A stretch of DNA of 64,000 nucleotides from Lingula anatina. Lineage: Eukaryota; Animalia; Brachiopoda. The stretch is taken from contig CM120646.1 of assembly GCA_051362555.1 (NCBI GenBank), positions 17,050,001-17,114,000 on the forward strand, written 5' to 3'. The notes under the pieces were generated by a model. The model ran no database searches. It saw nothing but the letters and a program-made list of their open reading frames with translations, and was not told where the DNA came from. The position numbers and the translations under genes were made by a program. Below, in pieces: positions 3,653 to 49,958 of the stretch; the stretch's first letter is position 1, and each line of letters starts with the position of its first letter.

Positions 3653-4149
3653 TAGATAGATGATAGACCTAGGATGAACTGATATGATTGTTAGTGCAAC
3701 AGGGGGTTAGGCTGTTCCTGCGGATGGTCGATTCCTTACTCTTTTTGCATTTTAAATTCTGTCATCTCTTCCGATATTATTAGAGCGAGGAATTTCGATA
3801 TAAAACAGAATTATAAAATCGCCTAAAGAAGGAATGATAAAATTTTGGTAATGATGAATTAATTAGATAATGGTTAGTTATTAATTAATTAAATCATGGT
3901 AAGTTATTGATTAATTAATTAATGAAAATAATTGTTAGTTATTCATAAATTATATGGTAACTATCTACCTGTCCGCCAATGAAATGCTTTTCCCAAAACT
4001 TGACACTGTTTTTGAAACGGGCCCCGAACGCAGAATCGGCGCTATAATTCTTGAAATGTCAAAAGTAAAGTTTTAACGTTTTTTTCCTTTTTTTCACAAA
4101 AATTTTTATTGCTGGATGGATTGCTTTTCTACCAGTTAGAAACATTGGT

Positions 4150-4396
4150 ATCCGGTGCGAAGTGACAGAGAGACCCCATTGATAGAGAATCTGGTTCCCA
4201 TTCATTTGCACAGGTAAGCCTCGCCCTAGATTTTGAGCCACTTCCGTCAGGCTAACCCTAACCTGTATAATTAAATGGAGGGTGGACTCTCTGTCACACG
4301 GATCCTTAGTTTCGTCACACCGGCGCGAAAAGCAAAACACTTTCGTTCCCTAGGATGACCCGAACCTAGATTTCCACCTGTATTTCTACATAGTTA
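4150..4396. mobile_element. Dispersed repeat (non-autonomous element), homologous to ~51380..51745
   Basis: GGTTCCCATTCATTTGCACAGGTAA..CCCTAGATTTTGA..CCACTT..ACCCTAAC.TGTATAAT.AAATGGAGGGT.GACTCTCTGT..AGTTTCGT (4193..4315) recurs at 51438..51745. Ends are approximate. Confidence 0.7.
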
Positions 4397-4749: not shown

Positions 4750-4968
4750 TCCGTGATATGCAAATACCCTTGACAAGTACAATAGTAAGGCTGATCAACA
4801 CTAGTTTAGAAAAACGCTTTAAAGTGTATGTATTAATGCTCACAATTCACACAGAGCTTATCTGGAAGTAAAGGTGTCGCCATTGTAACCTACGCCTTTG
4901 TTGGAGCTGGATCGGAGGGGTAAAGTGTATCAACATATAAGACTTCTAGGTAACATATTTGGTATCCA
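4750..4968 (+). pseudogene. Decayed fragment of a further copy of the membrane-protein gene, directly upstream of paralog B
   Basis: TCGCCATTGTAACCTACGCC..GCTGGATC..ATAAGACTTCTAGGTAACATATTTGGTATCCA aligns to internal CDS 5891..5978 (TCGCCATTTTGACGTACGCC..GCTGGATC..ATAAGACTCCCATGTAACATATTTGGTATCTA) with indels. Left boundary is approximate. Confidence 0.7.
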
Positions 4969-4980
4969 CAAGAGTTTAGA

Positions 4981-6681
4981 ATGGGGATGTGTAAAGGCTA
5001 TCTTAACCTCTTGTATATTATACCAGAAGTTAGTTTAATATTAACATCTTTTGATGTTCTCACTGACTGGTTGGCATACATCGAACTTAAAGAATTCGAT
5101 TTCTATTACCAAGAACCGAATGACCCAGGACTGACGTCTTATTTGCACGAAACTTATTATCAGTTTTGTATCATCGGAACTATAGTATATGTGGCACACA
5201 CCGCCTATAACATATACTTTTATGTCGCAATCGAAAAGTATATCAGAGAAGAAGACAGAGATGAAGACAGAGAAGAAGACAGAGAAGAAGGCGGAAAGCT
5301 GGACATACAGTTACTCATTGCACTGGTAATAGCGCTTGCTGAAGAGTCCCTAGAGGACCTTCCTTTAGCATATCTGACAATAAGAATGTTCTCGACTGGA
5401 TCATGTTTAGTACCGACAAAAGTTACATCCGCTGCAGCTTTTGTGTCAAGAGCTGCAAGTTTAGCAGCAAGGGTGTTCAGAGCAGGTTTGTCTTGGTTTA
5501 AGGTTTGCACTGCATCGTGTACCTGCAGATGTAGGCACGCTCCATTTCAGGTGTTGTCAATCATTTTTGTAATTTTAGTAAGTACAATATCTATTGCAGC
5601 ATTTCTTATGGATTTTGCAGCCATATTGGCGGTGATTAACAATAAGCACGCTTTCATCCACGATATTCTAAGGCATGTGGATGTACACCTGGATAAAACC
5701 AACCTGAAAACTGCCAGCCTCGAGTTCGACAAATGGACGGATCCAGCAGGTTGGATTGATTCCGAGACTATGTTTAACCTGGCATCCATAGACAGAGACG
5801 TTGATATAGCAATAGTGGCCAGGGTCAACATCAACTTTTCACACTCAGCTGCTTATATGAAACTGAACCAATCCAGCAAATTAGAACGAGTCGCCATTTT
5901 GACGTACGCCAATGTAGTTTATGAAGCTGGATCAGGTGGTATGGACATAAGACTCCCATGTAACATATTTGGTATCTATGACACATCGACTATTCAAACA
6001 AGGTCGTTCATAGAGACAACTCCGAACAACCATTCTTCGAACCAGTGGACGGAGAGAACCACAACTTTTAACCAACGGACAAACACAGAAATGACCCCTG
6101 TCAATAACATATCAACAAGCTTGGAATATCCGTTCAATTCAACTCATTCGTTCATACCGGACACGACAACGGGACACACCCCCACAACTACCGCCGCTCC
6201 ATTCAGCACCGATAGCCTCACTTTATCAACCGAAAATCAAATATCGGATGCAACACAGTCTGGAAATGTGTCTTCAATTAGGAACAACACTTTGAGAACA
6301 TGTGACGTCGTTTTTCACCTTCTGTACATGTCAAGCAAGTCTACAATATTCTACGACTACAAGATAGAGACCCGAAGTTCGCCCGACGACTGTAATCTTC
6401 AAAACGATTCGGTTGATCTAACTTTAGACTTTCAAACGATTATGCCGGATGCCAATGTTTCTAACTGGAAGCCCAGTGATTCGCCCAGCAACGAAAAATT
6501 ATTCTGTGGAGCCAGGAAACCGTTTCAATTCGACTTTGGACATATCACGACATGTGATGCCGATGCTGTTTTCGGAACCGTTTCCAAAAACAATATCAAG
6601 TTCTGGGAAAAGCATTTCAGTGGCGGAGAGGTAGATACGTATCAGTGCTTTGACGTCGGACGTTGCAAGAGGATGACTTGA
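4981..6681 (+). CDS. Uncharacterised multi-pass membrane glycoprotein, paralog B (566 aa; XK-related-like TM bundle, Ser/Thr-rich stalk, Cys-containing C-terminal domain)
   Basis: Single 1.7-kb ORF with several hydrophobic segments in aa 1-220. Motifs FDVLTDWLAY and EESLEDLPL recall the XK-family D-x-x-[ST]-D and E-x3-E-x-x-P motifs. C-terminal half has many N-x-S/T sequons and a T/S/P-rich tract. A conserved paralog lies at <1..1005. Confidence 0.85.
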   Translation: MGMCKGYLNLLYIIPEVSLILTSFDVLTDWLAYIELKEFDFYYQEPNDPGLTSYLHETYYQFCIIGTIVYVAHTAYNIYFYVAIEKYIREEDRDEDREEDREEGGKLDIQLLIALVIALAEESLEDLPLAYLTIRMFSTGSCLVPTKVTSAAAFVSRAASLAARVFRAGLSWFKVCTASCTCRCRHAPFQVLSIIFVILVSTISIAAFLMDFAAILAVINNKHAFIHDILRHVDVHLDKTNLKTASLEFDKWTDPAGWIDSETMFNLASIDRDVDIAIVARVNINFSHSAAYMKLNQSSKLERVAILTYANVVYEAGSGGMDIRLPCNIFGIYDTSTIQTRSFIETTPNNHSSNQWTERTTTFNQRTNTEMTPVNNISTSLEYPFNSTHSFIPDTTTGHTPTTTAAPFSTDSLTLSTENQISDATQSGNVSSIRNNTLRTCDVVFHLLYMSSKSTIFYDYKIETRSSPDDCNLQNDSVDLTLDFQTIMPDANVSNWKPSDSPSNEKLFCGARKPFQFDFGHITTCDADAVFGTVSKNNIKFWEKHFSGGEVDTYQCFDVGRCKRMT

Positions 6682-7252: not shown

Positions 7253-7466
7253 GAGGGCATTCCCAGAGATTTAGATCGTTCTTGCTAGATCTACCTAACT
7301 CCCTGGGGGTTCACGCTAAATTGCAGTCAGCCGACCGCGCACGGAAGTTAATTATCCCCTTACAGCTTTTAGTAAGCGGGACAGACATTTAAGCCGGCTA
7401 AGCTGACAGTAATCTAGTGAGACTCCCCACGGGGATGGATCGATCTAAATCTCTGGGAATACACTC
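7253..7466. mobile_element. Tourist/PIF-Harbinger-like MITE (family 1)
   Basis: TIRs GAGGGCATTCCCAGAGATTTAGATCG / CGATCTAAATCTCTGGGAATACACTC, TAA on both sides (7250-52, 7467-69). Related copies at ~26371 and 52513. Confidence 0.85.
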
Positions 7467-9059
7467 TAAGGCTAGCTGATCTTCGATTGCACCCAGCTTA
7501 ATGATGCCCCTTACATCATTTAGATAACTATCTCGGATATAGAGAAAATCCCAAAACCGAAACGGTATTTTCTCCCCAAAATGGCGCTATGAACAGCGTC
7601 GTCCGTGAGACACTGCACTTAATCTCTATATTTAATTGGACTTTTGGAAAGTATGTTTTATTTCTTTAAATAGCAAAAAAAAAAAGGGGGGGGGGGGTTG
7701 TCTCCAATGTCTCAATGACTTTTACCGTTTTACCATTTCCCGACTTATTTTTTTTATGGCATAAAACTTGTAACGTCTATTTTCTGAAATGCATACTTTA
7801 TTTTAATAGATGTGCGAATTACCAGAAAAATATGTAATAATATATAATTGTTTAAATTTTATTGTCATTAATAACAGATTTAATAAAGCGTGTATAATCC
7901 ATCTTAATAGTTTTAATCGGAAACTGTCCATTAAATTGCTTTTGGATGATGCATTACATATTCGTAAGAATTGGGGATTGTTTGAACAAATGATAAAAAG
8001 AGAAAGCATTCTCAAAGGGTTCATTCAAATAATTTACAATTTATTCATTTGATCCATTTATTAAGACAGGAAATATATATATAGTTTACGCCATTTCTAC
8101 AAGCAAGTGCTCTATTTACAGCCAACTAACGGAAAGTTTGCCTAGTCCACAAGTGCCACTGCCTTATCCCCGTCGACCCCATTCTAAATTTCAAACCAAA
8201 CTGAAACTTCTAATTCAAATAAATATCCCGGCACTTCAGAGTCTCTTTTATCGCTAATGTGAAAGTTATAACACTCTTCGTTTAATTGCGAAATGCAAGT
8301 AATTGTGCAATAATATAAGGCGAATGTATAAGGATATTTAAAAAAGGCTGAAAAGAGAGATTCTTCTTTATTGAGATATTGACGTCTTTTGGGAATTTTA
8401 CCCTGTCTTTATATTTAACACAGTGAGGAGGCAGTATTTCTCTTATAAATTCTCAGGTTTACCAAAGACTTTGGAGTTTTTCATTTTAGAATTATTATTT
8501 GGTAATACGATTAAAAGATGCACAGTCTTTCAATTAAATATCGTAAAAGGCGCTGACGGTAGAATAGAGTGATGCAACGAACCTTTACCCTGAAGTAAAA
8601 TTGCCTGTCTGTTATATGTAAATGACACTAAAACTCAACCCCCTTCTATCCATGTAATAGATCAAGTTAACAAGAAGTTGCATTTGTCTCAAAATTTGGG
8701 AATGATAAGTTCTGTAAGGAAAATAAAAGAGAATTTAAAGCATATGCAGTAATATTCCCATGTATACGCAGTTAAACTGGCGCACTTATTTTCTGTCACA
8801 TAACCGTACATTTTCAAATCAATGATGTCGAGTTCATGGACAAAGTCTGCTATTTTCAGAAATTGAGTAAACAGCGTTTAGTTCTTATGAATTCATCTAG
8901 TGCAATTTGTACGAGAAAGTGCGCATGACTGCTAATGTGTTAGCATCAGTGATGGCAGTTAGTCCTAATCCAGAGTCTTTCGAATGTTTTGGAATACAGC
9001 GGGAATTCCAGTCGTAGAAAGTACAGTGGGCGTATCCGGCACGTGCCAGTGTTCAAGTG

Positions 9060-9911
9060 CTACTGCTCTATCGTTGTTAACGCATCCCCCACGGATCTCC
9101 CCCAGCGCGACGCTGAGCCACCGAAACCGTTGGCTTTCCTCTGGTACTTTTGTAACAAATCTAAGAGTTCCTCGGCAAGTTTAGGCTTTGACCGCCGAGT
9201 TCGCTTACGGCTACCAACGGACCGACCCCAACGCGAGCTTGAGTTTCCATACCCGCCACGGTTTTGCTTTTGGTGTTCTAACATCGCTAACAATTCCTCT
9301 ACGGTTGGTGAACTGCCGCTGATGCCACTGATGAATCTTTTCTTCCGTGCTGCGGAAAGGCCATTGCGCTTTTGGACCTTTGTATAATGAACGGCCGCTG
9401 ACGCAGAACGTTGCGACGTAGCACTATTTTTAATTCGATCGCCAGATGAAGATAGATATGCCTCTAGATACTGACTAAATTTTTCGTCGATTTCACAGAT
9501 TTTCTCAAGCTTGGCAACGCGTTCTAGGGCTTGTTGGTCGAAATAGACAGTTGCATGCGCCTCCAATTCTGGCTTGTTCACATGAATGTAAGTTTTCAGG
9601 AATGTTAGAAATTGCTCATCGTTTGCAACTAAGTCGAATAATCGTTCTTTAGATGGGTTACTTTCAATATCTGAATTAATATAATCGTCCAGTCCACTCT
9701 TTGGAACGTCGCCGTCACGAACATCTGGCGTTGCTTTAATTTCATCTAATTTCTTTAATGTTTCGGATAGTTTGTTACTTTCGCCGCCCTTTTTGCTGCC
9801 TGGAAATGTGGCAAGTTGGTTGTTTTGTTTTTCAATTCGGTCCTCTGTCAGCGGTTTAGCCACAACGAGATACACAAGAGAAAGAATGGCAAGGCAAAAA
9901 AATTCTCTCAT
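9060..9911 (-). CDS. Neuropeptide precursor (283 aa) encoding two C-terminally amidated SRWamide peptides
   Basis: Signal peptide MREFFCLAILSLVYLVVA; basic cleavage sites KR, RKKR and RKRTRR; two repeats ending SRW-G-R-SVG (Gly amide donor plus basic residue). Splice acceptor (ttcag) 9 nt before the ATG; coding exon starts at 9920. Confidence 0.9.
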   Translation of the reverse strand: MREFFCLAILSLVYLVVAKPLTEDRIEKQNNQLATFPGSKKGGESNKLSETLKKLDEIKATPDVRDGDVPKSGLDDYINSDIESNPSKERLFDLVANDEQFLTFLKTYIHVNKPELEAHATVYFDQQALERVAKLEKICEIDEKFSQYLEAYLSSSGDRIKNSATSQRSASAAVHYTKVQKRNGLSAARKKRFISGISGSSPTVEELLAMLEHQKQNRGGYGNSSSRWGRSVGSRKRTRRSKPKLAEELLDLLQKYQRKANGFGGSASRWGRSVGDALTTIEQ

Positions 9912-11484
9912 CTTGGAAACCTGAAGTTGAAATAATGAAGGAATATTAACATCTATCGTTTATTTATCAAGGCAAAGGTTAATAATGCGTAAAAATATTG
10001 CACTTTAGGCTATAGAACAACGAAAACTTTATTTTATGTCATTTTGATAAAATCTTTAAAAAAGTAGCCTTGCTTTTATTCAGGTTCATTGTAGGACTAG
10101 GAAGTTTAAAACTATACTAAAAAATAGCTTCTATATCGCCCATTCATAAAAATCATAAAAATTGGGCAAGACGTTCGATATTGAGCAACGGCGTGATAAC
10201 GATAATGAATAAAAGTAAATAAAATATCTTACTTGTATGCATTTATGATATAATGTTATTTGTACAATTTTCATTTAAATTGTTAAATTACTTTTCGAAT
10301 AAGCGGAGAATATAAATTATGTAATTTTGTTGTTTTCATAATTCAACACCTAGGCCTCATATTTTTTATATTAACCTGATCTACTTTTTCACATTTTGAT
10401 ATTATTCCATCCTCTTTAGCCTTAGACGTAAACGAACATTCAACAATACGTCTCGAAACTAACGATCTATTTTCCTTGTCGCATATACATGCAGTGAAAT
10501 CCATAGCATTACTTACTGTTCTGAATGAGATCAATGCGGAAGTTGAATCTATAATCAGCTTTCTTGGAAGAACCCTTTTTAGCGCGAACAAATTTGAAGC
10601 GCCCCTTTTGAAATGACTTTCAGCTTATGCATTAATTTTTTTTCTTTTTTGTCATTCATTCACTAATCATTACCATTACTAGTACTTTGCATTGTTTTAT
10701 TGTATTTTAATCTTACCTATTAATTCATTACAATTTTTCTGATGAGAATTGTCAGAAAGTCCTTTTTCATCAGAAGAGAGATTATTCACAATCAATCTGG
10801 TTAATCGTTTAAAATGTATTTCTTAAAACTTGAATATCTAAACACCTCCCAATGCGTTAAGACCGCACAGAATTGCGTTAATATTTATTAGGCACAAATA
10901 GTTAATACACTATCCACACTCTGACGTATTCTGAACACCTGCCGTCAAGTTTCTCTTTATTCTTGCCGCCGCCCCACCCCCTACCTCCTACTGCTTAGAA
11001 ATAGATAACCTTTAGGGCATGTATACAGCACACACCTGTTCTTGAGATAGTCGGCAATTTTTTCTTCTTTTGTTGACATTTTTTCTCCAACAGTTAGGAC
11101 TCACGGACTCTGACTGCACTTAACAAACGCGAAATAAAAAAAATCTTTGAAGATTTTCGAGTTATTTTGTTCTGGTGTCTATCTCGGTTCTCAAATGGTG
11201 ATGAATAAATTATAAGATGTATTTGAAGCGCTCATGGCATGTAGTTTTTGATGAAACAGTTAATTCTTTAGTTCAATGCAAAGAGGACAGAAAAAAGGTG
11301 ACGCCTATTTCGAATTCTAAAGGACGGCTTAAAATCAAAGATCTTTTTTATTAGAAAATAATTCGCGTTATAAAGCATAATAAATTCCTCCCGTATTGAT
11401 TTAAATGAACAAAAAAGAACCATAGAACATTTACGTTTTTAATCTAAAATGATTAAAAAATATAAATTAAAACAGTAGATTTAC

Positions 11485-11613
11485 CTTTCAAAAATCAATC
11501 CCTTTCAAATGTGTTTTCTTCTTTGATTCAGTAAAACGCGCTCTACAATATCCTTCTGCTGTCGCTGTCTACCGCACAACTACTGAACGTCTGTTGGTTG
11601 GGAAAAGCATTCT
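11485..11613 (-). other. Putative non-coding first exon of the neuropeptide gene
   Basis: Donor AG|GTAAAT at 11485/11484; Inr-like TCAG with its A at 11613, 30 nt downstream of the first T of TATAAAA. Confidence 0.6.
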
Positions 11614-11636
11614 GAAGCTTTATAATCCCGGTGGTC

Positions 11637-11790
11637 TTTTATAGCCGTTGATAGTGGGGTGACCAGCCACAGGTGAGAGAAGCAGGTCTCCCGGAGCGAG
11701 CACATGCCTGGCGAGAGGGCTGAGAGGAGGGTATCCGACCTCTCATACAACATTTTATTTTCTTCGTTGATTTACGACTTAATGACGTCA
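11637..11790 (-). promoter_or_regulatory. TATA box and palindromic CRE of the neuropeptide gene promoter
   Basis: Minus-strand CTATAAAAG (TATAAAA 11643..11637); perfect TGACGTCA at 11783..11790, about -170 from the inferred TSS. Confidence 0.65.
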
Positions 11791-14700
11791 TCATGTTTCT
11801 TTACTCGACCCACGCTTGTTTTTTGCAAAGGTCCTTGAGAATTGTCAAAATTATATTCCACTATTTAAATTGTCATTTTTATTATTATTGATGTTGTTGT
11901 TGTTACTTGTATTGTTATTAAATAATTTGGCAACCGTAAAGAGTTGGATAAATACATGACATAATGGCACAATCTGATGAAATTACTTATTGATAAGAAT
12001 AAGAATTTTAATGGATATCAAAAACCAAGATAAATTTCCATTATATTTATGTTAACAAATTAAACAACTTTTGGGTTTTTTAATTTACCAGTTGGCTTTG
12101 AAGCTTTTAGTAATAATAAGTACTGTAAAGTAAGTGGTCCTACACTGATTTCTACAAAATAGTTCAATATTTAAGAGGTATTATACAAGTATTCAACTGA
12201 GTTAACATTAATACGGAGGTGCGTAAGATATTGCTTCCAATCACGAATAAGATGAAGGAACAGGGGTGGCAAATAAGAGGAAGAAGACGGTAAAGAGTAC
12301 GTCGGCACTTTGGTCGGTTACCGTTTCAGACCTCACCGCGTTATCCTAAAGATACCTAGACCCGACAACAGATTAAACCTTATTAATATAATACCTCTGT
12401 GTCATTTCCACTACGGTATGATTATGTAGTAGTGAATAAATATGTGTGTAGATCTTTGATATGTAGCGCCGGGGAGGGCCGCTCAATCGCGCCCGAATCT
12501 CTCCGTTATCAGAATCTTACGAAGTAAGGAATGCGAGGAAATCACGTTGGTAGGCTAAATATGAAAGGGAACCTGTTTGGTCTGCGGGAATAAAATTCGC
12601 CGCCGGCTTTCAGTTAAAGCGAAAGATGGTATTTGGACAATTATCCATGGGCTACAGGAAGAAGATTGGTTCCTTTTCGAAAAGTTTAAATTTGGTTTGT
12701 TTCACAATATTTGATGGTTTGATGATTCTATATACAGTGTTAAGATTTATTTTGGTGAAAACGGGATGCACAAAATGGTGTTAAAATAATGTTGGACAAA
12801 TCAACTTTTATGAAAAAATGACTATGATATATATATAATGTTAAATAAAATTAGAGATATATATTTCATAAAAGTATTGGACAGATGAGCAAGAAGCGAA
12901 TCAAATTATTATCAAGTGAATTATTTTATTAGCTAGTCAGAGTGCTTCGTTTCTTTAATGGGAAATTTGTTGAAAATTTTTATTTTAAATTTTGATTGAC
13001 TGGTAATATCATGTTTGTTATTTCACAAAAGAGAGAGAGAGAATGCACGAATAGAATTATAAAAAAACTTCTACCACGAATAACCAGCAAGCATGAAATC
13101 GTCTAAGTTCTTACATTTGGAAAATGATTTCAACAATATCGATTAAATACAGATAAAAGGGTGGTGTTGATTAGAATAAGTTTTTTGTGAGTGCCTATAT
13201 TAGTAAAACTGAATAAAGCTGCCCATAGATATAGTACAGTTAATGATAACTAAGAGTATTTGTTATGCACCCTTGATAATTATACTGTGCCAGCGACTTT
13301 AATTTTTTTAATAAATATATTATCAGGTTATTAAAATGTGCGATTAAATGTGCGAATCCGTAAATGTAAGTCGTTGTATGCTAAAGCTATTAAAAGAAAT
13401 TGAAATGCTTAAGTCGTTTTATCATAATACTACAAAAGCAAATGAAACACATAAATCTAAACTTGAAGGGACCCTCTCGGTAAAAAGTAAAACGGCAACA
13501 CTTACTGCTATAGTAAAATAGCATAATAATAACAGTGTAATAGTATTTATAGTGTAACCCAAGCCAAAGGTGTTTCAGTGTCCAATTTATCTCTTTATTG
13601 TTTGAAAACAGTAAAATAATTGTACGTTTTTAAAATAGCAATTTTTGCTTGTACGGTGATGGGGGTTGACTAATGAACAAACAGTGTGTCATAATAAATG
13701 AGTCTAAGAAAGGTTATGTAATAAGCAAAGGTGGGAGTATAGGGCCTATAAACCAGGATGGTTAATCACCATTTCAATTTATTTGAAAATGTGTAAAAAT
13801 ATTCAAATTTCTTCTCTGGATTCGATGGCCAAGGCGTTGTGTTTAAAATGGCCTTATACCAATACAGGAAAACATGAAAAATTAATAAAATGAATCTTAT
13901 CAAACCAATCCAATTTTACAGATAAATTTGGAGTAATTTAACGGATCTGCAGTCCTATTAGAACGACTAGAAGACAATACAAGAAACAAACATAAGTTGA
14001 ACACGTGCTTCAAGTGCGCTTTTAATAAGTGGACTATTTTCAATCGGTTCTGTTTACTTTCCACTCGTAATCAAGTACCTTGTTTGTATCATTGAACTTG
14101 GATAACAACTGTGTAAACTTCTGTGAAGACTTCAAAGTCGGTGTTACATCTTTTCTTTCCCAGCCAATAAAAATGGGTAAATCTGATGTTATATCATTTA
14201 AATCATTCAAAGTAACATTATATGCAAAAAATGAAAAGTGTAAATTTGATGGAATATCATTTTAATCATTCAAAGTAACATACGGTGGTATTAAATTCTA
14301 TCTACCTGTAAGATAATGGAAAATTTGTGAATTTTTTCATTTTTCAACAAACACCTGCGTAAAAAAAAGATACTAGACCTTCAAAGTCCGTGCTGCGTCT
14401 TTTCACTCCCACATAAAATGTCAAAATAGATATGATGTAGTTTTTTAGCCATTCAAGGTTGCGCAAGTTCTATTTACCGCAAAAAAAAAAAAAAAAAAAA
14501 AATATGGACATTGCGAATGAATTTTTCAACTGGTTAGTCGAAGTGATACAATTGACTTACAAAAATGTGAAATTACAGCAAGTTTCCTCGAATTTACCCC
14601 ATGAAGGATACCTTGACGATCCTCACCGTGGTATAGATATTTTTCTCCAGCCGTCGGTAGCCGTGAAACTCGACAGGGCAGCAGACGGCATGAGATAAGA

Positions 14701-15568
14701 AAATGGCGGGGCACTTTGCAGCTGTGAGGCAACCAAGAAAACTGGAAGTCAACCAAAGATGGCATTTGTTTACTTGTCTCTTGCTTCATGATTAAGGTTA
14801 CCTAATTTCAGCAGTGGTTTCCTAGGCCCTATTTAAATCGAAATGAAAGCGTTCTAATGGATAAATAAAATGGATTACACCGGGTAATTGTATTAATGTA
14901 GGCCCGATTCTTCTGCAATAATGGTTCTATTGTTTGTAGGTGTTGGGATAAGCAGCTATTGGGAAATTAAGAGGCTATCAATTGGTCAAAGTACGATAAT
15001 TCTACCAATTCAAGTTATACCAGATATCATATCTTCCTTCTGAAACTTACAAAAGAGATTGGAAATATTTTCGCCAGGAACACGTACTGTAGTTGAGCGC
15101 TGTTCATCAAGATTTACTCCTCCGGGCGATTTGATCTATTTACATTCTTTATTGCTTTTATTATTTTCAATCATTGCAAAAATAAAGAAATGAATGGATG
15201 AATAAATGAATAAACCAAAAAAAAAAAAAAGAAAACTTATATAACTCATCTTGTAGAAAGGGCCTGCTTGTAGGAAAGGTTTTACCATTTGTAAGACAAT
15301 CAACGGACAATGAATCTCTCTCTCTTAATACTAAAGTGACTGTTACATGCCTTTCTGGTCAAATATAACCGTAATTAATGGGAAACTTTGCTCTTTGTTC
15401 AAGTAATCTGCCTGTCACATGATGCCTGAAGGTGTGACCCCCCAGGAGCGTCTGGCGGGGGGCTCATCCTGACTTGTTTACGAGCACTGTCGTCGTGGGA
15501 AACTGAAGGTCAGCTACGTCAGCAACTGTCACCCTGTATAACATAGACCAATCGGCAACTTATTGGCT

Positions 15569-15847
15569 GCATTCACAACAGAAAATCCTCGGATCTACTG
15601 ATCCGCAGATCAAATATGGCGGACCCTACATGAAAGAAGAGCCGACCAATCCGCTGACGGTCTCCCCGCTTTCGCACGCGCCATTAAACGGGATCAAATC
15701 ACGGCTCAGAGGTTTAATTGCTAGATCCCACAAGGACGGCGCGTGTTGAGGCAGAGAGAACATCAGCAGCTTAGTCGGCTCTTCATGTAGGGTCCGCCAT
15801 ATTTGATACGTGGATCAGTAGATCCGAGGATCATTTGTTGTGAATGC
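15569..15847. mobile_element. Fold-back MITE
   Basis: Arms GCATTCACAACA..ATCCTCGGATCTACTGATCC..ATCAAATATGGCGGACCCTACATGAA..GAGCCGAC and the reverse complement at ~15774..15847. Confidence 0.8.
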
Positions 15848-17187
15848 CCTTGAGGTCATTCTAAGCTATGGACGTAGTTCAACCGCCGCTTCCGTGCCGT
15901 GGAAGAGCAGTCAGCTCCAAACATGCTGCGTTACGCGGGGTAGAGGGGTGAGTTTACGAAACCAAGTCCAAGGCTGAAAGGCCATGAGGCAGGTGAACCC
16001 CTGCTGAGGGGGTGGGGCCAAGAGACAAGATCCCTGGATATTTTTTTCAACTGGGTATCAGGTTATGATTGGTAAATTTGGAGAAATTATAGACACGAAT
16101 ACATCATACGCATTATGCTTGCTACAATAAATGAATAAATAAATAGATAAATAAATGATAAATAAACAAAGGAATAAATGGAAGAATTAATGATGAAAGG
16201 GTGACAAAATAAATCAATAAAGAAATAGATAGTTCAATGGATCAGAGAATAGATGAATGAAAAACAGTAAAACTAATTAATTAGTGAATTTATTTATGAT
16301 AGAGACTAAAGAGAATATTAAAAAGCAGAAAACTAAACAAGTCGGACTTATAAGAGACTTAGGGAACAAATTATAGTATATAAAGCAAGTGGTTTTGTAT
16401 ACATCTAAGATAATTGGCTTTAAATATAATTATTTAATTATATTGTGCTCTCTGATATCGGACCAATACAAAATGATTTTCCTTAAAGTATTAAATGAAA
16501 TATTTACAAGTCTAAAGATGATTTTCATCGGCATCAAATCTACCAGACGGCTGATGATTTTTTTTTTATTATTTTCATTTTCAAACCTCACATATTCCGG
16601 TATCATCGAGGTTTTTTCTTCATAGATTAAGTCCCTCTGTTCTAAGATATAGGACGGTATCCACAGCTGAGTTCTAGTTCTGAGGAATTCAAAAATAAGT
16701 AAAATAAAAAAAATGTTATCAACTATCTAACTTTGATTAAACAGTTATAAATATCAGTATAATTAACTACTGTTAAGTAACATAAACAGACCGGGGCCTT
16801 GGCCCCCTTCTTGGCGTGACAACAGCGCGAGGTGATCAGTGCTTCTCACGTGTATGCCTTGTGCAGCTGGGGCGCTCTTGTTGCGAGGTTTCCTCAGCAA
16901 CCCACTCTCTATATATAACTGTGAGCGATTTCCACTCTGACTGCACGCAAGATATCCGGAATGTTGTTAAAGGAATACTATTCCCTTTGAAAATATTCCA
17001 AAATCATGTTTACTGTCTACATACTCTGCAAAGCTGTATATTTATCTTTCCCAGACTTTAAAAAGTGCAAAAGTACAAAAAGTATAGAAAGACATGGACT
17101 GTCATGTAGAACTGAGGTTTCAATTAGAAATTATATAAAACATCAACTCCGAGAACCTGGGACGGGATGAACAATGATTCGTAAATG

Positions 17188-17746: not shown

Positions 17747-20700
17747 ATGCCGCCCAAACAGCGGAAGATAGCGGTGATGGGATTTAGGGCAGTTGGTAAG
17801 TGTGGGTTTATTGACAGCCGCTGATTTTGTTTATGACATGTCGATATTTCGATGAACAGATGGTTGTGCAGTAATGCACGAACTGCTGAACGAAGTTGGT
17901 GGTCGTACTTTAATGTTTTCAGTGATCCGAGCTAAAAAAGGCATCTGAAGATCGCATAGTTTAGCTTCAATTTTGCACACGAAGCGGTAGATCAATAATG
18001 ACAGCTGCACAATATGTTAATAGACAGAATACAGATACTAGACTTTGTGTATTACCAGGACTAGTGCATGTGCTTGTTTGCAGCGCTCTCATACATGTAG
18101 TTATTAACGATCAAAACATTGTCTGGTTGTTGACTGTTGTATGGGCATTTATACAGCTCGGTCATTATTCTGGAGTGAACACTGCCAAAGTTATTGGTCT
18201 GTTCATTTAAAGTAACAGGCTCCACTTCTGTGTGATATGTCCATCTTGTACATTATGATGTGAGACCTTGAATTTACCTGCAAGTTCTATGAGCATTATC
18301 TGTAGATCAGCTTCTTTATTTACTGTAAAAGCACATAAACTATGCAAATGATTAATGACTGAGAATTACAACGAAGAAATGGAGTGGTGTGACCTATGTG
18401 ATAGAATTAGCAGGAAATGTTTGACATCTCATCAACTGGTTACTTGTACTTGGGCTGTCATTAGAAATTGAGGCGAAAAAGTCATTCCTTTGGCACTTTT
18501 TCTTAACAAAAATTAGCATTCTGCATTTAGAGTGACCAGTAAACATTTCAAAATCTAAAGTCAGTCACATGTCGAAGCATTATTTTGTTAAAGAAGAATA
18601 ACAGATAGTAATGATATGGTCTGTCTACAGTAAAGTGTCAAAGTAATTGATAAATCACAGTTTTTCTACTACTCGATGCCATGAGGAGACGTGTTAATCT
18701 GATTGCATCTAGAGACAGTCCCCCTGGAGTTAGTGCACACTAGTTTGTACAATAAGTTGTGAATACACCCTAAATTAAGTTGATCTAGCAAAATAAATAA
18801 TACACACTTGAACAACAATTGAATTAAGGTTTGTTTTTCATGCTTTGTTTTTTGGGTTGCAGGAAAATCCTCCCTAACCATCCAGTTTGTAGAGGGACAG
18901 TTTGTGGATTCCTATGATCCTACCATTGAAAACAGTGAGTATCTTGTATCAGATGATTATTGTTTTTTTTTTTTCCTCAGGGGTATCCCTTTTTTCCATT
19001 GGGGTTATAATGGAAAGTCTGTGTATACCACACACCTCATTGGTTAAGTTAATGAGTCAGAGTGGTAGAGCTATGTAAAAGGAGAGGGGAGGGATCTAAA
19101 ATTACACACTCCACTCATGATAATTAAATGCCATATTATCAGTTGAGTTGTTTTAGTCTGAAACTACTTTAAGTCCTGAATTTACAACCCACACCAAGTT
19201 AAATCAGTTTTGGTTGTTTTATTTATTTATTCCTTCCAGCATTCTCCAAGGTTTTCAAGTTTAGTGGTCAGGATTATCAGTTACAACTTGTTGACACTGC
19301 TGGCCAGGTGAGCTCTTTTTTTTTTTTTTTCATATTATTGGACTTTGTACTTTAAATGTCTCAGTACAAGTAATTGTGCCCTCTTGCTGATTCTTTTTCT
19401 TTGAGCTGTTATGTTGATTTCATGGCAAGTGGGCAGTGCCCCCCCCCCCTTAGCCCCCCCCCCCCCCCCCCCTCCACCACTACGGTCTACCCAAATCCTC
19501 GAAATTAGAAATCTTCCAAATATGAAAAAGTGCTCATGGTTTTTATTTTGATACCTTTATAATTTGAATGCCAATGTTTTATAAATAGAAATGCATTTCA
19601 TAATTAATAAATTGTGTCTCTTAACCATTAGTAAAACTGTTAACTATTAGTAAAACACTATTTTAGGATGAATACTCTATATTTCCACAATCCTATTCCA
19701 TGAACATAGATGGTTATGTACTAGTGTATTCAGTCAACAACGAGAAAAGGTAAGTGCTAGTAGTGTGTGTGCATGTGTTTTACAGAATTTTCAAAATTGT
19801 TTGAGTTTAAAATGTTTTGTTGCTGATTGATAGATGAGTCCAGTCCTCAGTAGTAAGAGCTTGGAAGTTTATCAAGTATGCATGTGACATTTTGCATGCA
19901 TGTAACATTTTGAATTCATTTTTAATATAATAGATAAATCAACATTTGTCTTATTTTATTTTACAGTTTTGAGGTTATAAAAGTGATCCATGAAAAGATT
20001 TTAGATATGACAGGAAAAGCTCAGTAAGTACAGTTAGCTTGTAGATTTTTTTCATACTGATATATGAGGTGCTCTTTAGTCCAGTATAAGTATCAATAGT
20101 TCCAGCATTTTGCCCTTTTAGTTTGTATGAAGTCTTTTTCCAGCCCATTTTCCTTTTGAATACATATACATGTAATTCATAGAATTTTCATTATTGTGTA
20201 AGGCTCCTTATAAAAATTTTATATTTGTTATTATTATTAGTTTAAAATTTACCCTATACATGCATACGATTTTATCTTTTCTGCTTGTCATAAAACACTT
20301 TTGCTGAAATGACATATTAGATATTAACTTAAAGTTTTTGCTGAAGAGTTGCTCACTTGTCATTAAAAAGTAACATCTAAGACAGTTCTGCATTTTTATA
20401 TACTATACTTTCCTGTTTCTCCAAATAAAGTGCCATTGTCCTTGCCTCTTTGTAACAGTATGATTTGTTTCATATTATTCACATGCCTCTCTTCAGTCCT
20501 GTTATTGCTGATAAAAAGAGAAATACAAAGTTGGGTTTCAATTCTATTTTTAAGGGTTCCTTTGGTTGTTGTTGGAAATAAAACAGATCTAACCATGGAA
20601 AGGTAAGCTGTGGAATAACTTTAATTCTCAGGCTTGTCTTACTAATGGACATTTCAAAATCCTCTGGAAGGAAGAAAACAATGAAAATTTTCAAGTTAAC

Positions 20701-21588
20701 TTAATATTAATAAAACTAGATTTAAAAGAAGAAAAATCTTTGCAAGAACAGATATTAAATGCTGTATTTGCTGACCTTTTTGAAAGATGGTGGGTCAATA
20801 GTTTAGAAATACTAATTATTAACAATTTTTATTGATTTTGAAGTAAAGGGAATTTTGTATAGTACAACCTTGTTATATTGGTTTGTGTAGAATATTTTAA
20901 AAAATTGAATGATAATCGTCCAAGATTTCTTCTATTTTTTACCAGAATAATCAGCCCTGAGCAAGGGAAAAAACTAGCTGACTCCTGGAATGCTGCTTTC
21001 CTTGAAGCATCTGCAAAACAAAACAGGGTATTGCAATCAAAAATATTGTTTTTCTATCAGCTGTTAATTTCTATGTTTTTCAAATTGCTCCAGAGTATTA
21101 ATTTATCTGAAGAATGTTATCAGCTGAATGTCAGGAATTAATTTTCTTTCCATATTTATTTTTAACATTAATTCTCCAATAAAATGTCATTGCCCAATTT
21201 TATAACCTTAAAAATAAACTTTTATCCTATTTGACTGGTTTTAATGCAATTTCTTTATCGTCATACCCTCAGCTTCAGTTTTGACGCAGGTCAGTTCATC
21301 TTCAGCATATTTAAACTTTCAAACTGCCTGCTATTTGCATCCAATAAGCATGCACATGGGCAAATTTGAAAATGAAGAAGTTGGCATGCATTGGAACTTA
21401 ATAAAGGTCAGGGTATTTTATCAGCAACTTTCAAACATGAAACTTCTTGATTCAAATAAGCTCTGTCGCATGTTAATTGTTTTGTTTTTGTCTTTCAGCA
21501 AGTGTCAGATATCTTTGGCAAGATCATTTATGAGATCGAGAAAGCTGAGGGCAACATCAAGGAGAAAGGAGGGTGCAGTATATCATAA
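17747..21588 (+). CDS. RHEB: GTP-binding protein Rheb (182 aa)
   Basis: Exons 17747-17795, 18863-18934, 19240-19307, 19667-19749, 19967-20023, 20555-20602, 20946-21027, 21499-21588; all GT-AG, 549 nt. [62 protein letters not shown]..CSIS* with Rheb-specific P-loop Arg, effector loop YDPTIENT and a CAAX box. Confidence 0.97.
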
Positions 21589-26370: not shown

Positions 26371-26586
26371 TTCCCATACTTGGATCGATCCATCTGGGGG
26401 TTCATGCTAAATTTCTATCAGCTCAAGAGGCTTAAATGTCTGTCACGCCTACCGAATCAGCTGGGGGTAAAGATATTTCCCCTCTCACAGTTTTACTGGG
26501 CGTGACCGATGTTTAAGCCAGTCATTTTGATAGCAATTTAGTGAGACTCCCTAGGGAGATAGATTGATCCAAATATCTGTGGGAAT
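26371..26586. mobile_element. Diverged copy of MITE family 1
   Basis: TTCCCA..GATCGATC..GGGGGTTCATGCTAAATT..TTTAAGCC..TAGTGAGACTCCC..GGGAAT matches 7253..7466. Confidence 0.65.
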
Positions 26587-29229: not shown

Positions 29230-32200
29230 TCAATTGCCACTTAACACTTCATATTGGGAGACCATTGATGTTTCATCTTCAAAGTGACTGTTCACATGAC
29301 TTTCAAAATCGGTTTGTGGAAGCATCTTAGGGAAAGCAGCGCTGCACATTGGGCAGACACGTTCATCGGTATTAACTGGCCCCTCGTCATCAAAGGAGTT
29401 GTGCACAATCCCCGAAGTCTCCCCAGGCATGCAGTCCATGACGTGTTGTTGTAACTCCTCCATTGGCATTGACACGGGAAAAACTCGATTACAGGACGGA
29501 CAAATACGGTCATATTCATCCATGTTGTCTCTCAGCGGGATATGTATAGTGGCTCCCTCTGGTTGGCTCCTCTCATCACAAAGGAGGTTTTTACTGGGTA
29601 TCATCCCAACCTTATGGCCTAGCAGGGGGTCATTGTTCAGAACTGTTGGGCTGGTAGATGGTGACCCCAGTTTGGACCCCCCTGGCTCCTCTGTGTACAG
29701 ATTCGGATTTTGTTTACTATTATCACGGGTTTGAGGATGCTCTTCATTTCTTTCAAAATTAAGAGCCGACGTGTTTCGAACAGATGAACCGGTAGATCTC
29801 TGATTGTTACTACTGGAAGGCCCAAGTCTACTTCCAGCCATATTGTTTCCTGCTGATCCAGACCTAGAAAGATTAGAGTTCCCAGCATTCCCACTCAGGG
29901 GAGGATTAGAAGCACTCCCTCGAGATCTATGGGATGTGTTTCTTGGTGACACAGATGGAATGTCCATGAGGGCAGAGCCAAATATATCTCCCTGATCTGA
30001 TGTCATACTGTCCCCTCCCAACCCCTCATCAGGATCGGCAGTTTGGTCCTCTCTCAATGCCTCTTCTCTTCCCTGACTATTCAGTGATCCTACTCCTCCT
30101 GTCTCTGAAGGAAGAGAACCAAACTGCCCATCTGGCGTGAGATTGTCCGTGTTCCCAGTGGCTGGTATCATTGTTGCATAGGTCATGTCTTGTCCTGGCT
30201 CCATCCCAAGCTCATCTTGCATTACGTCCTCGGAGCATGGAATGGCGTAACTTTCTGTCATCACATCGCGTGCGGATGAGGCATTTGCCTGAGGTGATGA
30301 CGCTCGGGGGGAGATACTGCTATTGGCACTGGTTTGTGGATTTGCAGCTGGTGTCCTCTCTTTTGTACGTATTGCTGAAAATATCATAAAATCCTTAAAA
30401 CATTTCATCAAATACAATATCTTTATAAAGTGGTGGCCTTCTCCTTCCTCCCAGTTCCACGAAAGTCTCTTACTAGTCTTTTTCTTCTTGCCTGCATGTA
30501 TTGCCCCCCTTCCTCCTGCATTTTTCTCATTTTTTCATATTATTCTCAGCCTATGGCCCTGAAGTTGTTTGTAACCACACTCACCTGCTTTTTCTCTCTG
30601 CACGGCTTTTTCTATAAATAAGTGTTGCTCTCGCACCATCTTTTTCAAATTCTCATTGTCTTTTTTCACAGCTTCAATTTGAAATTTTAAGCCAAGCAGT
30701 TCTTTTTCTCCTATTCCTGAAACATGAAAGGAATTCATTCAATGACAACCATCTTGGATTCCTTAACAGCCCTCCACAGCAGCCAGGATGTTTTTGTTTA
30801 TGTACATTATCTGAAGGATTGTTTACAGCTTTACTGTATACTACGTCGACATAACTCACTTTGAATGGTCCCCAACTTACCTGTCCCTGAGGTCTCTGTG
30901 TTCTGTAACAAGGACAGCCTGTCTAGATATACTTGTTTTTCTTCTTCCTTTTCTTTTAAAGCATCTTTGAGTTGACGATCTAGCTCCAAGCACTGCTTCT
31001 ACAATGAAAAAGATTTTCATTTCAATTTACACTGTAAAGTGTGCCAAGTAGACGGAAAAATCATTTTTTTTTTTTGGTGAAAGTCGCCTCCTTCAAGTAA
31101 TCCTGGGAAATTTTTCATCAGCTGAGTCTCTTATTTCCGTTTAAAAAGCTATTTATATGTTTTAAAAAAATATACAAATCATCCTGATTTATTCACTTAA
31201 TGTGAGGCATAACAGGATAAACTTTTTATAAATGCAAATGCAAACATTAATTTGTTAAAAGCACTGAATAATCTAAACTGCCTTTGGGAAAAGTAATACC
31301 TAAAAATATATAGAGAATCAAAGTGTGCAATATGTTATCAAGTCAAATTATAAAGTTAAATAGATTTTCGCATATTCAGTTTCCAATAGCTTGAGTAATA
31401 CAGCAACAGCAACTCTCTCTGCAGATGGATGCTTCCTCCAGGCCTTGTAGTCTAGATGACTGGTGCAAAAATTGCTCAAAAGGTGGAAAAAGCATGAAAC
31501 TTGGCACAAATGTTCTTTGGACTATGCTGATCATTTTCAAGGGCAGTGCCCAAAATTTCAAAGCGTTGCTTAGCAACCGTTGCTAAGGAAGTGATTTACC
31601 TTAGTAGCAAGCTAATTGGACCTTTCTTGTTCAGTTTAAATGATTTAAAAAGGCTTTTAATTATGTTTCAAACCATCAGAACTATCACTATACTATTTTA
31701 AGACATTAAAAACCCAAGTAAACCATTGCAACAGTTGCTAGGCAGCATATTACCCTAGCAACAAGTATTTAACATGCTGAATTAGCCCAGAAAGTTAGTG
31801 TTAAGGTTGATTTTTTGTTGAGTTCCTCTAGACAGAGGGGAGTTCAAATGTCATTAATAATATCATTGATGTAAAAAAAAACAAAAACATTTTTACACCA
31901 TCTTTTATGGAAAATATTTTTTTAATTATTTTCAATTTTTGAGTTTTGACATAATGGTTGTGATAAGATTTCATCTGGGGTTAAATTGAAATTTTCCAGA
32001 ATTTCACTCAAAGAACCAATAATGTTTGCCAAAAGGGATAAGAAGTTGCTTTTAGTATTTTTAATCCACCTTTTGTTACTACCGATTCCTGACATTTTGC
32101 CAAGAAAAACGCACCCCACTTACTCTTATTTTCTTCATAAAGAAGTCTCTTAAGCCATGTAAAGTTTAGGGCCTTGGAAAAATTTTTATTTGCTGTACCT

Positions 32201-34537
32201 TTTTCCGTCCATTTTTGTAATCAGACGCCATCCTTGCTCATTTTATTTTGTATCTTTTTCCATTCCTGATAAAGTTAAATATGATATGCATATTTTAAGT
32301 ATTGAGGGAGGGGGGGGGGCTGGTAGGAGAGTTTATACATGCCCTTCGTAAGATGAGAAATACTAAAGGTTTAACCACTGTTGACTTTCCTATTATTGAA
32401 AGGTTTCTCAGAGACCAGATTTCCAAGATATTTTTCATTTTGTTCAATATTTTCTAAAAAGTTTTTTCACATTGTATTTTGTCAGTTCAGCATGGTTCTA
32501 TTTTAATTCTATTTGTTAATCAATAAAGTTCAAAAGTTTCTGTTCACACCCAAAGGCCGTTAGATGCCATATCTTACTTCCACCAAGGCTGCTCTACATC
32601 AATATAAGAGTATTCTTGCGAGATGAACATATCTGAATCAGCACTACGGTGCCATGTCATCAGATACCATGTGCTCACTCTGGTTGGACTTGTGCAGAAC
32701 AGTGGGCCTAAGTGGACACATTTGCCAAAAGCTATTGACCTGTCCAGAGTTGCTCCAGTGTGCATGTAGGTGCAGATGTAGAGGCTGACAATGTGCAAGG
32801 GCAAAATGCACTGTATATTGCACATACAAGGGAGAATTAACTATTATTATTATAATTATTAACTATTGCAAAGTTTTATAAAGAGTCGTAAATGGAAATG
32901 GCTGGTTACTAATTTTGAACATGCTGCCTTAAGTATCTGCACTGGCAATTTATTTGATCGGATGTGTGTAAACACACAATTGGTTCAACTTACTGGATTA
33001 AAAGTATGAACATCTTGCTCAAAAGTGTAGTTCTTAGCTAGTATTATAGATTTGCCTTACTTAATAGACTAACGCAACTTTAAATGCTTGTTGCTAGGGT
33101 AATATGCTGCCTAGCAATCGTGGCTAAGGTTAATTTGGGTTTTAATTGCCTTAAAATAGTCTAGTGATAGTTCTGATGCCCTGAAACATAGTTATTAGCA
33201 TTTATAAACTTTTTAAACTGGACAAGAAAGGTCTAATTAGCTTGTTACTAAGGAAATTCACTTCCATAGCAACGGTTGCTAAGCAACGCTTGGAAATTTT
33301 GGGCACTGCCCTTGAAAATGATCAGCATAGACCAAAGAACAATTGTGCCAAGTTTCATGCTTTTTCCACATTTTGAGCAATTTGGCCAAAATATAGCACC
33401 AGTCATCCAGACTATTGGTCCATTACAATTATGGACCACGAGGTTTTAAAGCTCCACCTTAGAGAAGACAAGACCAAGTCTGAGGACTGTGCTGTAGAGA
33501 TGCAATGTCCAAAAGCACCCCTGCTCAAAAATTAAACACACAATGAAATTTTTATCGTGAAATGCTGCTTTATATCATGTTTGTTTAGGGACAAAGACAC
33601 TTACTGTTTAGCAATGCAATTCTGTCTGAAAAAGTTTTGGAAGCATGTAATATGCACAACCAAGGTTTTGCCTTGTGCCTTTTAACCAAATTATGTTTAA
33701 CCATTTTCAAACATTACTATTTTAGACAAAAAGCGCACGCACGCACGCACACAAGCGCGCACACTCACACACACACAAGACCGGAGTATATAAATGAAAG
33801 AGACTTCAGTAAAAAATTTGTACAGCTTATTTTCAATATTGCCATACCTTGAAACCTGCTAACTCCCTCTCCTTTCTTTTTAAAGTAGTATCAAGGACTT
33901 CAACCCTTGACTTTGATGCCTCTTTTTCATCGCTTAGCTTAGACAAATTTTCTTGCAATTCTGCAATTTCCATTTTATGTCTTGTAATCATTGTTTGAAT
34001 TTTATCCTTAATTGCCTGACTCTCATTAATCAATCTTTTGTTGTCTGCTTCAATTCTTTTGAGCTTGCTATTCAACCTGTCAACTTCTTGTTGTTTGTTC
34101 CTCATTTCTACCTGCAACTTGTATATTTCTGACTCTAGATATTTGCTCCTCATTTCGAGTGATCTAAACTGAGCAGACGACAGGTCACTGCCAACACTCT
34201 CTGGCTGGCCATTGGTCACAGGCGACCCTGACCTGGGGGCAGTGTCTTCACCAGAGTCCACATTCCGCGATGCCATTCCAACACGACCTTCTTTAACAGC
34301 CCGTACAAGCTGTCTGTGTTTTCCGTCAAGTTGATTGTATCGCTTTTTTAAATCGTTGTATGCAGTTTGGAGTGCAAACTGTGATGATCCTAAACTAGCT
34401 TGTGGTGAGGTATAGATCTGAAATTCTGGACGATGGGAAGATGGTGGAATTGCGCTTGGATGGTCCACATCTGAAGGACTGTCTTCCAGTATAGCGATGT
34501 CATTTTCCACAGACAGTTCATTTTGGTACTCTGCCAT
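29230..34537 (-). CDS. TANK/AZI2(NAP1)/TBKBP1(SINTBAD)-family TBK1 adaptor with two C-terminal UBZ1-type zinc fingers (~694 aa)
   Basis: Coding exons 34537-33848, 30998-30881, 30716-30585, 30374-29230; phase-consistent GT-AG, 2085 nt. N-terminal ENDIAILE resembles AZI2 EDDICIL; SQFALQTAYNDLKKR resembles AZI2 SHFALVTAYEDIKKR; long coiled coil; TBD-like helix AVKKDNENLKKMVREQHLFIEK; AIPCSED resembles AZI2 PVGCSED; CPSC..HVMDC and CPMC..HVNSHF fingers. Confidence 0.85.
31448..33414. mobile_element. ~2-kb non-autonomous DNA transposon with ~325-bp terminal inverted repeats, in an intron of the TBK1-adaptor gene
   Basis: 31448..31772 (TAGTCTAGATGACTGGTGC..ATGAAACTTGGCACAA..CAAGGGCAGTGCCCAAAATTTC..GTTGCTTAGCAAC..) is the reverse complement of 33079..33414; TA at both outer ends; no transposase ORF inside. 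Confidence 0.85.

Positions 34538-41039: not shown

Positions 41040-49958
<8,919 letters not shown>

Follow-up and report, generated by a model that had tools for sequence, protein, structure and literature searches.

A transcribed Lingula anatina gene for a cysteine-less, two-copy SRWamide precursor, a probable member of a lophotrochozoan Tail DREP/GGRWamide family

We analyzed a 64,000-nucleotide stretch of the genome of the brachiopod Lingula anatina (GenBank assembly GCA_051362555.1, contig CM120646.1, positions 17,050,001 to 17,114,000; hereafter the window, to which all coordinates refer), which carries on its minus strand a transcribed gene for a peptide precursor with two copies of a sequence ending in Ser-Arg-Trp-amide. 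We consider it likely that this gene is a cysteine-less, two-copy member of a lophotrochozoan Tail DREP (doppelganger-related peptide)/GGRWamide family and encodes a predicted secreted prohormone. Established are its gene structure, transcription, open reading frame (ORF), basic sites, Gly-Arg amide donors and sequence kinship with 12 other precursors. New are the brachiopod member and, judging from the sequences, the finding that Tail DREP, GGRWamide and a group of multi-copy annelid precursors appear to form one family: two separately published orphan families are apparently joined through precursors carrying both kinds of copy, and brachiopods are added to them. Scattered orphans would become one family that spans four or more phyla and shares a defined conserved core, which would offer a concrete set of ligands for orphan lophotrochozoan peptide receptors, the QRFP-type receptor (QRFPR) among them.

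Precursor, predicted peptides and transcript

The precursor, P0001, is a 283-residue ORF at 9911-9063 on the minus strand (translation table 1), with its coding sequence in one exon (9060..9911), and is 98% identical to the Lingula protein LOC106160985 / XP_013393261.1, annotated as 'uncharacterized'. All features of the gene given below lie on the minus strand. The predicted signal peptide, judged by inspection of the hydrophobic N-terminus, comprises residues 1 to about 18 (9858..9911), and a structure model places a helix at residues 2-18. An RKKR site (residues 189-192, 9336..9347), at which a convertase would cut, stands ahead of predicted peptide 1 (36 residues, 193-228, 9228..9335, ending SSSRW-amide), which is followed by a Gly-Arg amide donor with a monobasic site (9222..9227); the string R-W-G-R-S is invariant in alignment A2. 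A second putative convertase site, RKRTRR (residues 235-240, 9192..9209; Arg240 is invariant in A2), precedes predicted peptide 2 (30 residues, 241-270, 9102..9191, ending SASRW-amide) and its own Gly-Arg donor and monobasic site (9096..9101). ORF translation thus confirmed the 36- and 30-residue peptides, each followed by Gly-Arg, that a preliminary description made from the sequence alone had proposed; the strings EELL-x-x-L and G-[YF]-G-x-S-x-S-R-W that it had noted are both present in each peptide. The RKRTRR site named there is that of the window sequence, but not of most RNA reads or of the RefSeq protein: residue 237 is Ser in 6 of 6 reads of run X1, 3 of 4 of X2 and 11 of 11 of X3, and in RefSeq, so the site is usually RKSTRR. 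The change from Arg237 arises from a two-base variant at 9202-9203 and keeps the dibasic site. Only two R-W-G-[RK] sites occur in the six frames of the window, both in P0001, and tblastn found no second copy of the gene there. In the structure model (mean predicted local distance difference test score, pLDDT, 62; predicted template modelling score, pTM, 0.23), helices are predicted at residues 204-218 and 245-260 (pLDDT about 67-79), with low-confidence tails. Peptide 2 is basic and strongly amphipathic (helical moment 0.6-0.67), and peptide 1 weakly so (at most 0.38).

RNA reads span about 8.0-9.9 kb in runs X1, X2 and X3, which belong to one study, and their first mates are all on the plus strand. 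In most stranded libraries, plus-strand first mates denote minus-strand RNA. The transcript, spliced onto a non-coding first exon, was seen in these three of the seven RNA runs used, out of nine listed, at a low read depth of about 2-11x, and no reads over the gene were found in X4, X5, X7 and X9; because the tissues of the runs are not given, presence from run to run does not point to a site of expression. The preliminary description had named a lack of transcript or peptide among the results that would refute its reading; a transcript was detected, and its picture of an expressed invertebrate precursor with prohormone anatomy is borne out by the ORF, the sites and the reads. The first exon (16587..16880, 5' end approximate) is joined to the coding exon at 9920/16587, with GT..AG ends, by 3, 15 and 3 reads in X1, X2 and X3; a loose read end also maps to this exon, and a TATA-like box was seen upstream of it by inspection (about 16910-16917). 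These joints define a GT-AG intron of 6666 bases in the 5' untranslated region (UTR; 9921..16586). A minor alternative upstream exon (14627..14700, where 14700 is a placeholder for its 5' extent), with a GT donor, is joined at 9920/14627 by 4 reads in X2 and 1 in X3. The 3' UTR of about 1 kb (8000..9059, 3' end approximate) was drawn from read depth, which reaches the bin starting at 7968-7972 and is zero in 7538-7971; AATAAA/ATTAAA sites lie near its end, at about 8062 and 8045. No splice joint inside the coding sequence was found in the RNA reads.

Relatives of the precursor and family membership

A phmmer search with P0001 against 1.84 billion representative proteins gave four proteins at E (expectation value) <= 0.001: the RefSeq protein, P0003, P0004 and P0005. 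P0003 and P0004 proved on reading to be unrelated repeat proteins and were dropped. P0005 is an unnamed 247-residue precursor with five amide sites, and its match (E 1.1e-4) covers residues 216-277 with both copies aligned. Used as a query in turn, P0005 retrieved another 12 proteins at E <= 10, with E < 1e-3 for 10 of these. Among the 12 are Lineus longissimus XP_064644014 (P0008, E 5.6e-32) and Capitella teleta CAPTEDRAFT_210930 (ELU14475, E 9.4e-13); the others are unnamed. P0025 and P0026 came in through a profile search, whose score for Lingula was circular and was left unused. From 12 non-Lingula precursors, 30 of 32 copies were taken for a consensus, two N-terminal copies of GGRWamide type being dropped. 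Counting back from the amidated tryptophan as position 0, these copies keep Tyr at -16 (25 copies), Trp at -13 (23), Arg at -12 (26), Gly at -8 (24), Tyr at -7 (24), Gly at -6 (25), Gly at -2 (21), Arg at -1 (30) and Trp at 0 (29), which gives the consensus Y-x-x-W-R-x-x-[NH]-G-Y-G-x3-G-R-W-amide. The conserved positions are concentrated in the amidated C-terminal 17 residues.

A family hidden Markov model (HMM) was built from the 12 precursors with Lingula excluded, the training set itself having been seeded from the Lingula match; on it, P0001 scored 38.8 bits (E 3.4e-4 at a database size of 5.77e9). Of 2000 decoys that retained the signal peptide, the two basic sites and the two RWGRSV blocks, none reached this score (maximum 26.8 bits), nor did any of 2000 in which only the peptides were shuffled (maximum 21.1 bits). 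A copy-level matrix was made from 30 of the 32 copies, with RW excluded from the score. The Lingula copies fit the consensus best with a two-residue deletion, and with one such gap they scored 12.5 and 15.4 bits (0 of 3000 shuffles each); typical members, left out one at a time, score about 17-43 bits and a few fall below zero. In the alignments, Lingula also has the invariant G-[YF]-G and R-W-G-R-S, and an Arg site precedes its last copy as in the other precursors. From these comparisons, the Lingula gene is likely a real but divergent member of the family.

Two families with published names fall into this group. GGRWamide (mass-spectrometry, or MS, peptide 4) was found by mass spectrometry in Lineus and has been reported from nemerteans alone, with monobasic processing; the same study scored it as absent in the six brachiopods covered, Lingula among them (Thiel et al. 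2021, PMC8557429). P0008 is the same protein as the GGRWamide precursor of that study and scored 77.3 bits on the family HMM, which was trained without it. The copies of P0008 are like the first ones of P0005 and of P0009 (Cys at -31 and -14) and unlike the Cys-less copies. In the second copies of P0005 and P0009, a Cys loop closes at -23, where two molluscan Tail DREPs also have a Cys. P0005 and P0009 hold all three copy types and therefore bridge Tail DREP and GGRWamide. Tail DREP was described from molluscs and annelids as a single peptide at the C-terminus, containing a helix and one disulfide loop (Koch et al. 2023, PMC10501145); examples are Capitella ELT87057, Pomacea XP_025084112 and Mercenaria XP_045210103, and the molluscan genes are given as intronless. 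In that source, expression was placed in earthworm digestive and calciferous tissue and not in the nerve cord, Tail DREP seemed absent from the Aplysia data, worm-hunting cone snails were found to have taken a mimic of it into their venom, and other functions were not ruled out for DREPs. Papers of 2026 (PMC13542836, PMC13311285) keep it as a mollusc/annelid peptide with function and receptor listed as unknown. By eye, the Pomacea and Mercenaria sequences show Cys at -23, [YF] at -16, Trp at -13, [NH] at -9, Gly at -8, Tyr at -7, Gly at -2 and R-W-G, which is the family register. The preliminary description had spoken of an apparently undescribed system and a novel family; this does not stand, since the precursor clusters with named GGRWamide in the searches and with Tail DREP in the motif register by eye. 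Lingula was classed among Cys-less variants of the wider family rather than as a strict Tail DREP, because its copies are without the Cys loop.

The Capitella ELT87057 model, the founding one for Tail DREP, has no R-W-Gly end and has one intron at that point, its extreme 3' end, which may be mis-modelled. P0012 and P0013 carry a fourth copy type (Cys at -30 and -11, tail M-R-R-W). P0017, P0019 and P0024 are unnamed precursors with GGRWamide-type Cys copies alone (E-G-G-R-W); P0017 and P0019 score weakly on the family HMM (28.0 and 15.1 bits), and two of the three are perhaps a tandem pair.

Neither P0001 nor the 11 members of alignment A1 matched a Pfam neuropeptide family, and a sequence search of PDB with profile A1 gave no neuropeptide chain and two chance matches (E 2.9 and 3.9); both kinds of search are insensitive for short peptides. 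Feature searches of the ESM Atlas peaked at 0.84 and 0.83, under the 0.9 level taken for a lead, with assorted hormone families lower. A metagenome scan with P0011 found no match, and one with alignment A3 found the loci of P0014 and P0016 alone, both uninterrupted ORFs; 'intronless' is a biased statement among the relatives because they were called as single ORFs. In print, a full-text search, in which subscription journals were mostly not covered, found no paper with both Tail DREP and GGRWamide or with the Lingula gene, and did not find the accession of Capitella ELU14475, which is annotated as hypothetical. The word SRWamide itself occurs in two papers (PMC9793003, PMC7523074). Strings from the Lingula precursor were absent from the supplement of Thiel et al. 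2021, from five supplement files of Koch et al. (multi-copy or brachiopod sequences could still stand in its nine other FASTA files, the ortholog list among them) and, with two files searched in part, from the supplements of De Oliveira 2019 (PMC6425005).

Possible maturation, receptors and alternative readings

In the pathway that we propose, signal peptidase would remove residues 1-18, convertases would cut after RKKR, after RK[RS]TRR and at the monobasic Gly-Arg, and a carboxypeptidase and the amidating enzyme would yield the 36- and 30-mers. Shorter forms, cut at an internal Arg in peptide 1 or at Arg-Lys in peptide 2, are possible; the long forms are favoured because family conservation reaches Tyr at -16. 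Across the family, three copy types may be distinguished: an N-terminal GGRWamide type (Cys at -31 and -14), a Tail type, whose Cys loop closes at -23, and a type that has no Cys. Nemerteans would have expanded the GGRWamide type, molluscan Tail DREPs would keep one Tail-type copy, and Lingula would keep two derived Cys-less copies. The products would most likely act as a gut or neuroendocrine signal through a rhodopsin-beta peptide G protein-coupled receptor (GPCR), with the RW-amide tail in the receptor pocket and the extracellular loops contacted by the amphipathic helix. The gut or feeding role is a guess made because the earthworm tissue is the sole tissue datum of the family, and a receptor-ligand role fits because conservation is concentrated in the last 17 residues. 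As to the receptor, another or a non-GPCR target has just short of an even chance; the orphan QRFPR and, equally, the sNPF/PrRP/NPY/luqin clades are each unlikely, and the CCK/sulfakinin-receptor clade slightly more so.

Several observations weigh against placing the Lingula gene in the Tail DREP/GGRWamide family. P0003 and P0004 scored above P0005 in the P0001 phmmer search, and the E-values of that search are therefore inflated by repeats; the P0005 search did not list P0001, and a word-index search with P0001 returned the RefSeq protein alone. Both copies are without Trp at -13 (kept in 23 of 30 family copies) and without Gly at -2 (kept in 21 of 30), having Ser there, and neither peptide has a Cys; ungapped, they score 0.9 and -1.1 bits, values reached by 14 and 36 of 20000 shuffles. 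Nemertean copies score -13 to -22 on the Cys-less matrix, so the link from nemerteans to Lingula runs through P0005 and P0009. Likeness in the pro-region is marginal (Capitella 4 of 1000 and P0009 2 of 1000 shuffles, among 13 comparisons), the HMM owes its training set to the Lingula match, the register with named Tail DREPs was judged by eye and left unscored, and the sole Tail DREP tissue report excludes the nerve cord. The missing Trp, Gly and Cys, the weak ungapped scores, the solitary word-index hit and the absence from the Thiel 2021 supplement would also fit a brachiopod-specific RWamide precursor unrelated to either named family, with a convergent tail. We consider this improbable: the 4000 tail- and site-keeping decoys never reached the observed HMM score, so the likeness extends beyond the tail; both copies independently fit the matrix with the two-residue gap; and the layout of two terminal copies and the R-W-G-R-S junction recur in the relatives. 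A little less probable again is an exocrine or defence role, in which the products would be cationic amphipathic helices secreted into the gut or mucus rather than neuropeptides. The basic, amphipathic peptide 2, the digestive and calciferous site of Tail DREP with its seeming absence from the Aplysia data, and the latitude on function left by Koch et al. (PMC10501145) agree with such a role, but the conservation clusters in the amidated C-terminal 17 residues as for a receptor ligand, a mimic has entered the venom of worm-hunting cone snails, and a read depth of about 2-11x, in runs whose tissue is not given, does not point to bulk secretion.

Two further readings concern QRFP and CCK. The preliminary description had likened the peptides to QRFP/26RFa, and membership in the Tail DREP/GGRWamide family is compatible with the view, one of deeper ancestry, that the whole family represents the missing protostome orthologs of QRFP/26RFa, activating orphan lophotrochozoan QRFPR. 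Such receptors exist with no ligand identified (Elphick and Mirabeau 2014, PMC4062910). A published table records them for brachiopods, phoronids, nemerteans, molluscs and annelids (PMC8557429), covering the phyla where the family is named so far. 26RFa is bound as an N-terminal helix, a basic loop and a Gly-started tail (PMC11148045), which equals the layout predicted for Lingula. Against this stand the residues. Chordate QRFPs are single-copy 25-mers with Leu4, Ala8, Lys18, Gly20 and RF-amide (PMC4062910), and the corresponding residues occur in 2 (Leu at -21), 3 (Ala at -17), 0 (Lys at -7) and 1 (Gly at -5) of 32 copies, the Leu and Gly matches belonging to Lingula itself: peptide 1 has one of the four, peptide 2 has two (Leu and Gly). 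Phe24, at -2, is crucial for human 26RFa activity (PMC11148045), but only 1 of 34 family copies has an aromatic residue there. Among the 32 copies, 3 contain LAE-x-[LF], the alignment of peptide 2 with 26RFa in the preliminary description needs gaps of 4 and 3 residues, and the Y-x-RK spacing exists because the Lingula-specific deletion removed Trp at -13 in peptide 2. Most of the likeness sits in features peculiar to Lingula. Pfam gave no QRFP match, the phyla of the family were assigned from four named species, and recent deorphanisation literature, in the parts available, names no protostome QRFP ligand (including PMC13485628, PMC4208404). What stands of the proposed likeness is the overall layout and an orphan receptor in the same phyla; the defining residues are mostly absent. 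The gene by itself does not show a protostome QRFP, and we regard the orthology as unlikely; that Tail DREP, GGRWamide, the multi-copy annelid group and the brachiopod gene form one ancient family and are also the missing ligand of the QRFP (GPR103-type) receptor is slightly less likely still. If it were so, the Tail toxins of cone snails would be QRFP mimics. About as unlikely, or marginally more so, is a non-sulfated, N-terminally extended CCK/sulfakinin paralog acting on a GPCR of the CCK-receptor clade. The CCK-like tail spacing noticed in the preliminary description is real and holds across the family: [YF] at -7, Gly at -6 and Gly at -2 occur in 27, 27 and 23 of 34 copies, and together in 17, in an ungapped register with the displayed molluscan, phoronid and brachiopod CCK/sulfakinin tails. 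Oyster CCK2 (Cragi-CCK2) ends in RW-amide, and unsulfated oyster CCK1 activates both oyster receptors at 0.2-0.5 micromolar (PMC6219549); second CCK copies end at a monobasic G-R, and the gut expression of Tail DREP (PMC10501145) would suit a CCK relative. On the other side, the acidic sulfation context is missing, as had also been noted: no copy of 34 has Asp or Glu at -8. Gly-Gly precedes RW in 4 of 34 copies, the HVD tail motif is found in 0 of 13 precursors, the displayed CCK peptides are without the conserved helix, Lingula has Ser at -2 and a canonical sulfakinin precursor of its own (comp114177, PMC8557429 supplement), and CCK2 is nearly inactive on both oyster receptors (PMC6219549). 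Orthology with CCK/sulfakinin is excluded; a paralog relationship is possible.

Two other assignments were tried and rejected. Luqin/RYamide, which the preliminary description had rightly set aside, does not apply because P0001 is without a peptide beside the signal peptide and without the C-terminal two-Cys domain, and Lingula has a separate luqin, g29755. The spacing Trp...Gly...G-R-aromatic, which we took to look PrRP-like, fails on gene structure. PrRP-type precursors have one peptide beside the signal peptide and a phase-1 intron in it (PMC7314547), as against an uninterrupted coding sequence with two C-terminal copies.

Neighbouring features and comparison with known systems

Upstream of the first exon and head to head with it, about 2 kb away, lie exons of a Ras-family small GTPase (18823-21138, +; Pfam E 4e-5 and 6e-4). 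They are followed by a coiled-coil gene with autophagy-receptor zinc fingers at its end (29230-34576, -; Zn-C2H2_12, E 1e-9), presumably TAX1BP1/CALCOCO-like, and an MCM helicase gene (41425-47081, +; MCM_N, MCM_OB, MCM), which we take to be MCM6. These three are the neighbours that a synteny comparison with chordate QRFP would draw on. Just past the 3' end of the neuropeptide gene is a short interspersed repeat (7271-7470), over which four RNA runs show joints on opposite strands and reads that fit in part, in the hundreds, and which has copies at 52532-52695 (85%) and 26380-26586. The 575-residue protein of a single ORF at 4954-6681 (+) has several hydrophobic stretches at its N-terminus, and Pfam gave no real match for it; no reads covered the ORF in four RNA runs. 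It has an inverted paralog at 1-949 (-; 78% DNA identity over 998 bases) and a fragment at 3962-4155 (-).

Among known systems, QRFP/26RFa shares with the Lingula peptides a helix, basic loop, Gly-started tail and Arg-aromatic-amide in a core of 25-26 residues, a helix followed by an extended tail being common to many peptide families, but it ends in RF-amide with Phe at -2 and has one copy per precursor, whereas Lingula has two copies, both S-R-W. CCK/sulfakinins share [YF] at -7, Gly at -6, Gly at -2, the Arg and the aromatic amide, and a monobasic G-R after the last copy; unlike the Lingula peptides they are short and sulfated, with an acidic residue at -8, a poly-Gly tail and HVD after the last peptide, and in Lingula they come from a separate gene. 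GGRWamide precursors have repeated copies ending R-W-G-R-S with Gly at -8 and usually an aromatic residue at -7, but a Cys pair (-30/-13) stands in every copy, and the tail is D/E-G-G-R-W in place of S-R-W. Tail DREPs come from a secreted precursor with basic sites, as in Lingula with its RKKR, RR, G-R and hydrophobic N-terminus; a C-terminal basic helix is followed by a tail, [NH]-G-Y-[GP]-x3-G-R-W-Gly in the two molluscan sequences, and the coding sequence is free of introns in the molluscan genes and in Lingula. They differ in having one copy with one disulfide loop, against two Cys-less copies, and Y/F-x-x-W-[RQ] in the helix, where Lingula has no Trp at -13, a two-residue deletion and Ser at -2. 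Nearest to Lingula in layout are Capitella ELU14475 and the unnamed multi-copy precursors P0005, P0009-P0016, P0018, P0025 and P0026: most of these keep Tyr at -16, Trp at -13, Gly at -2 and an N-terminal Cys-loop module, unlike Lingula, but like it they have a pair of Cys-less copies at the C-terminus, an Arg site ahead of the last one and the same junction.

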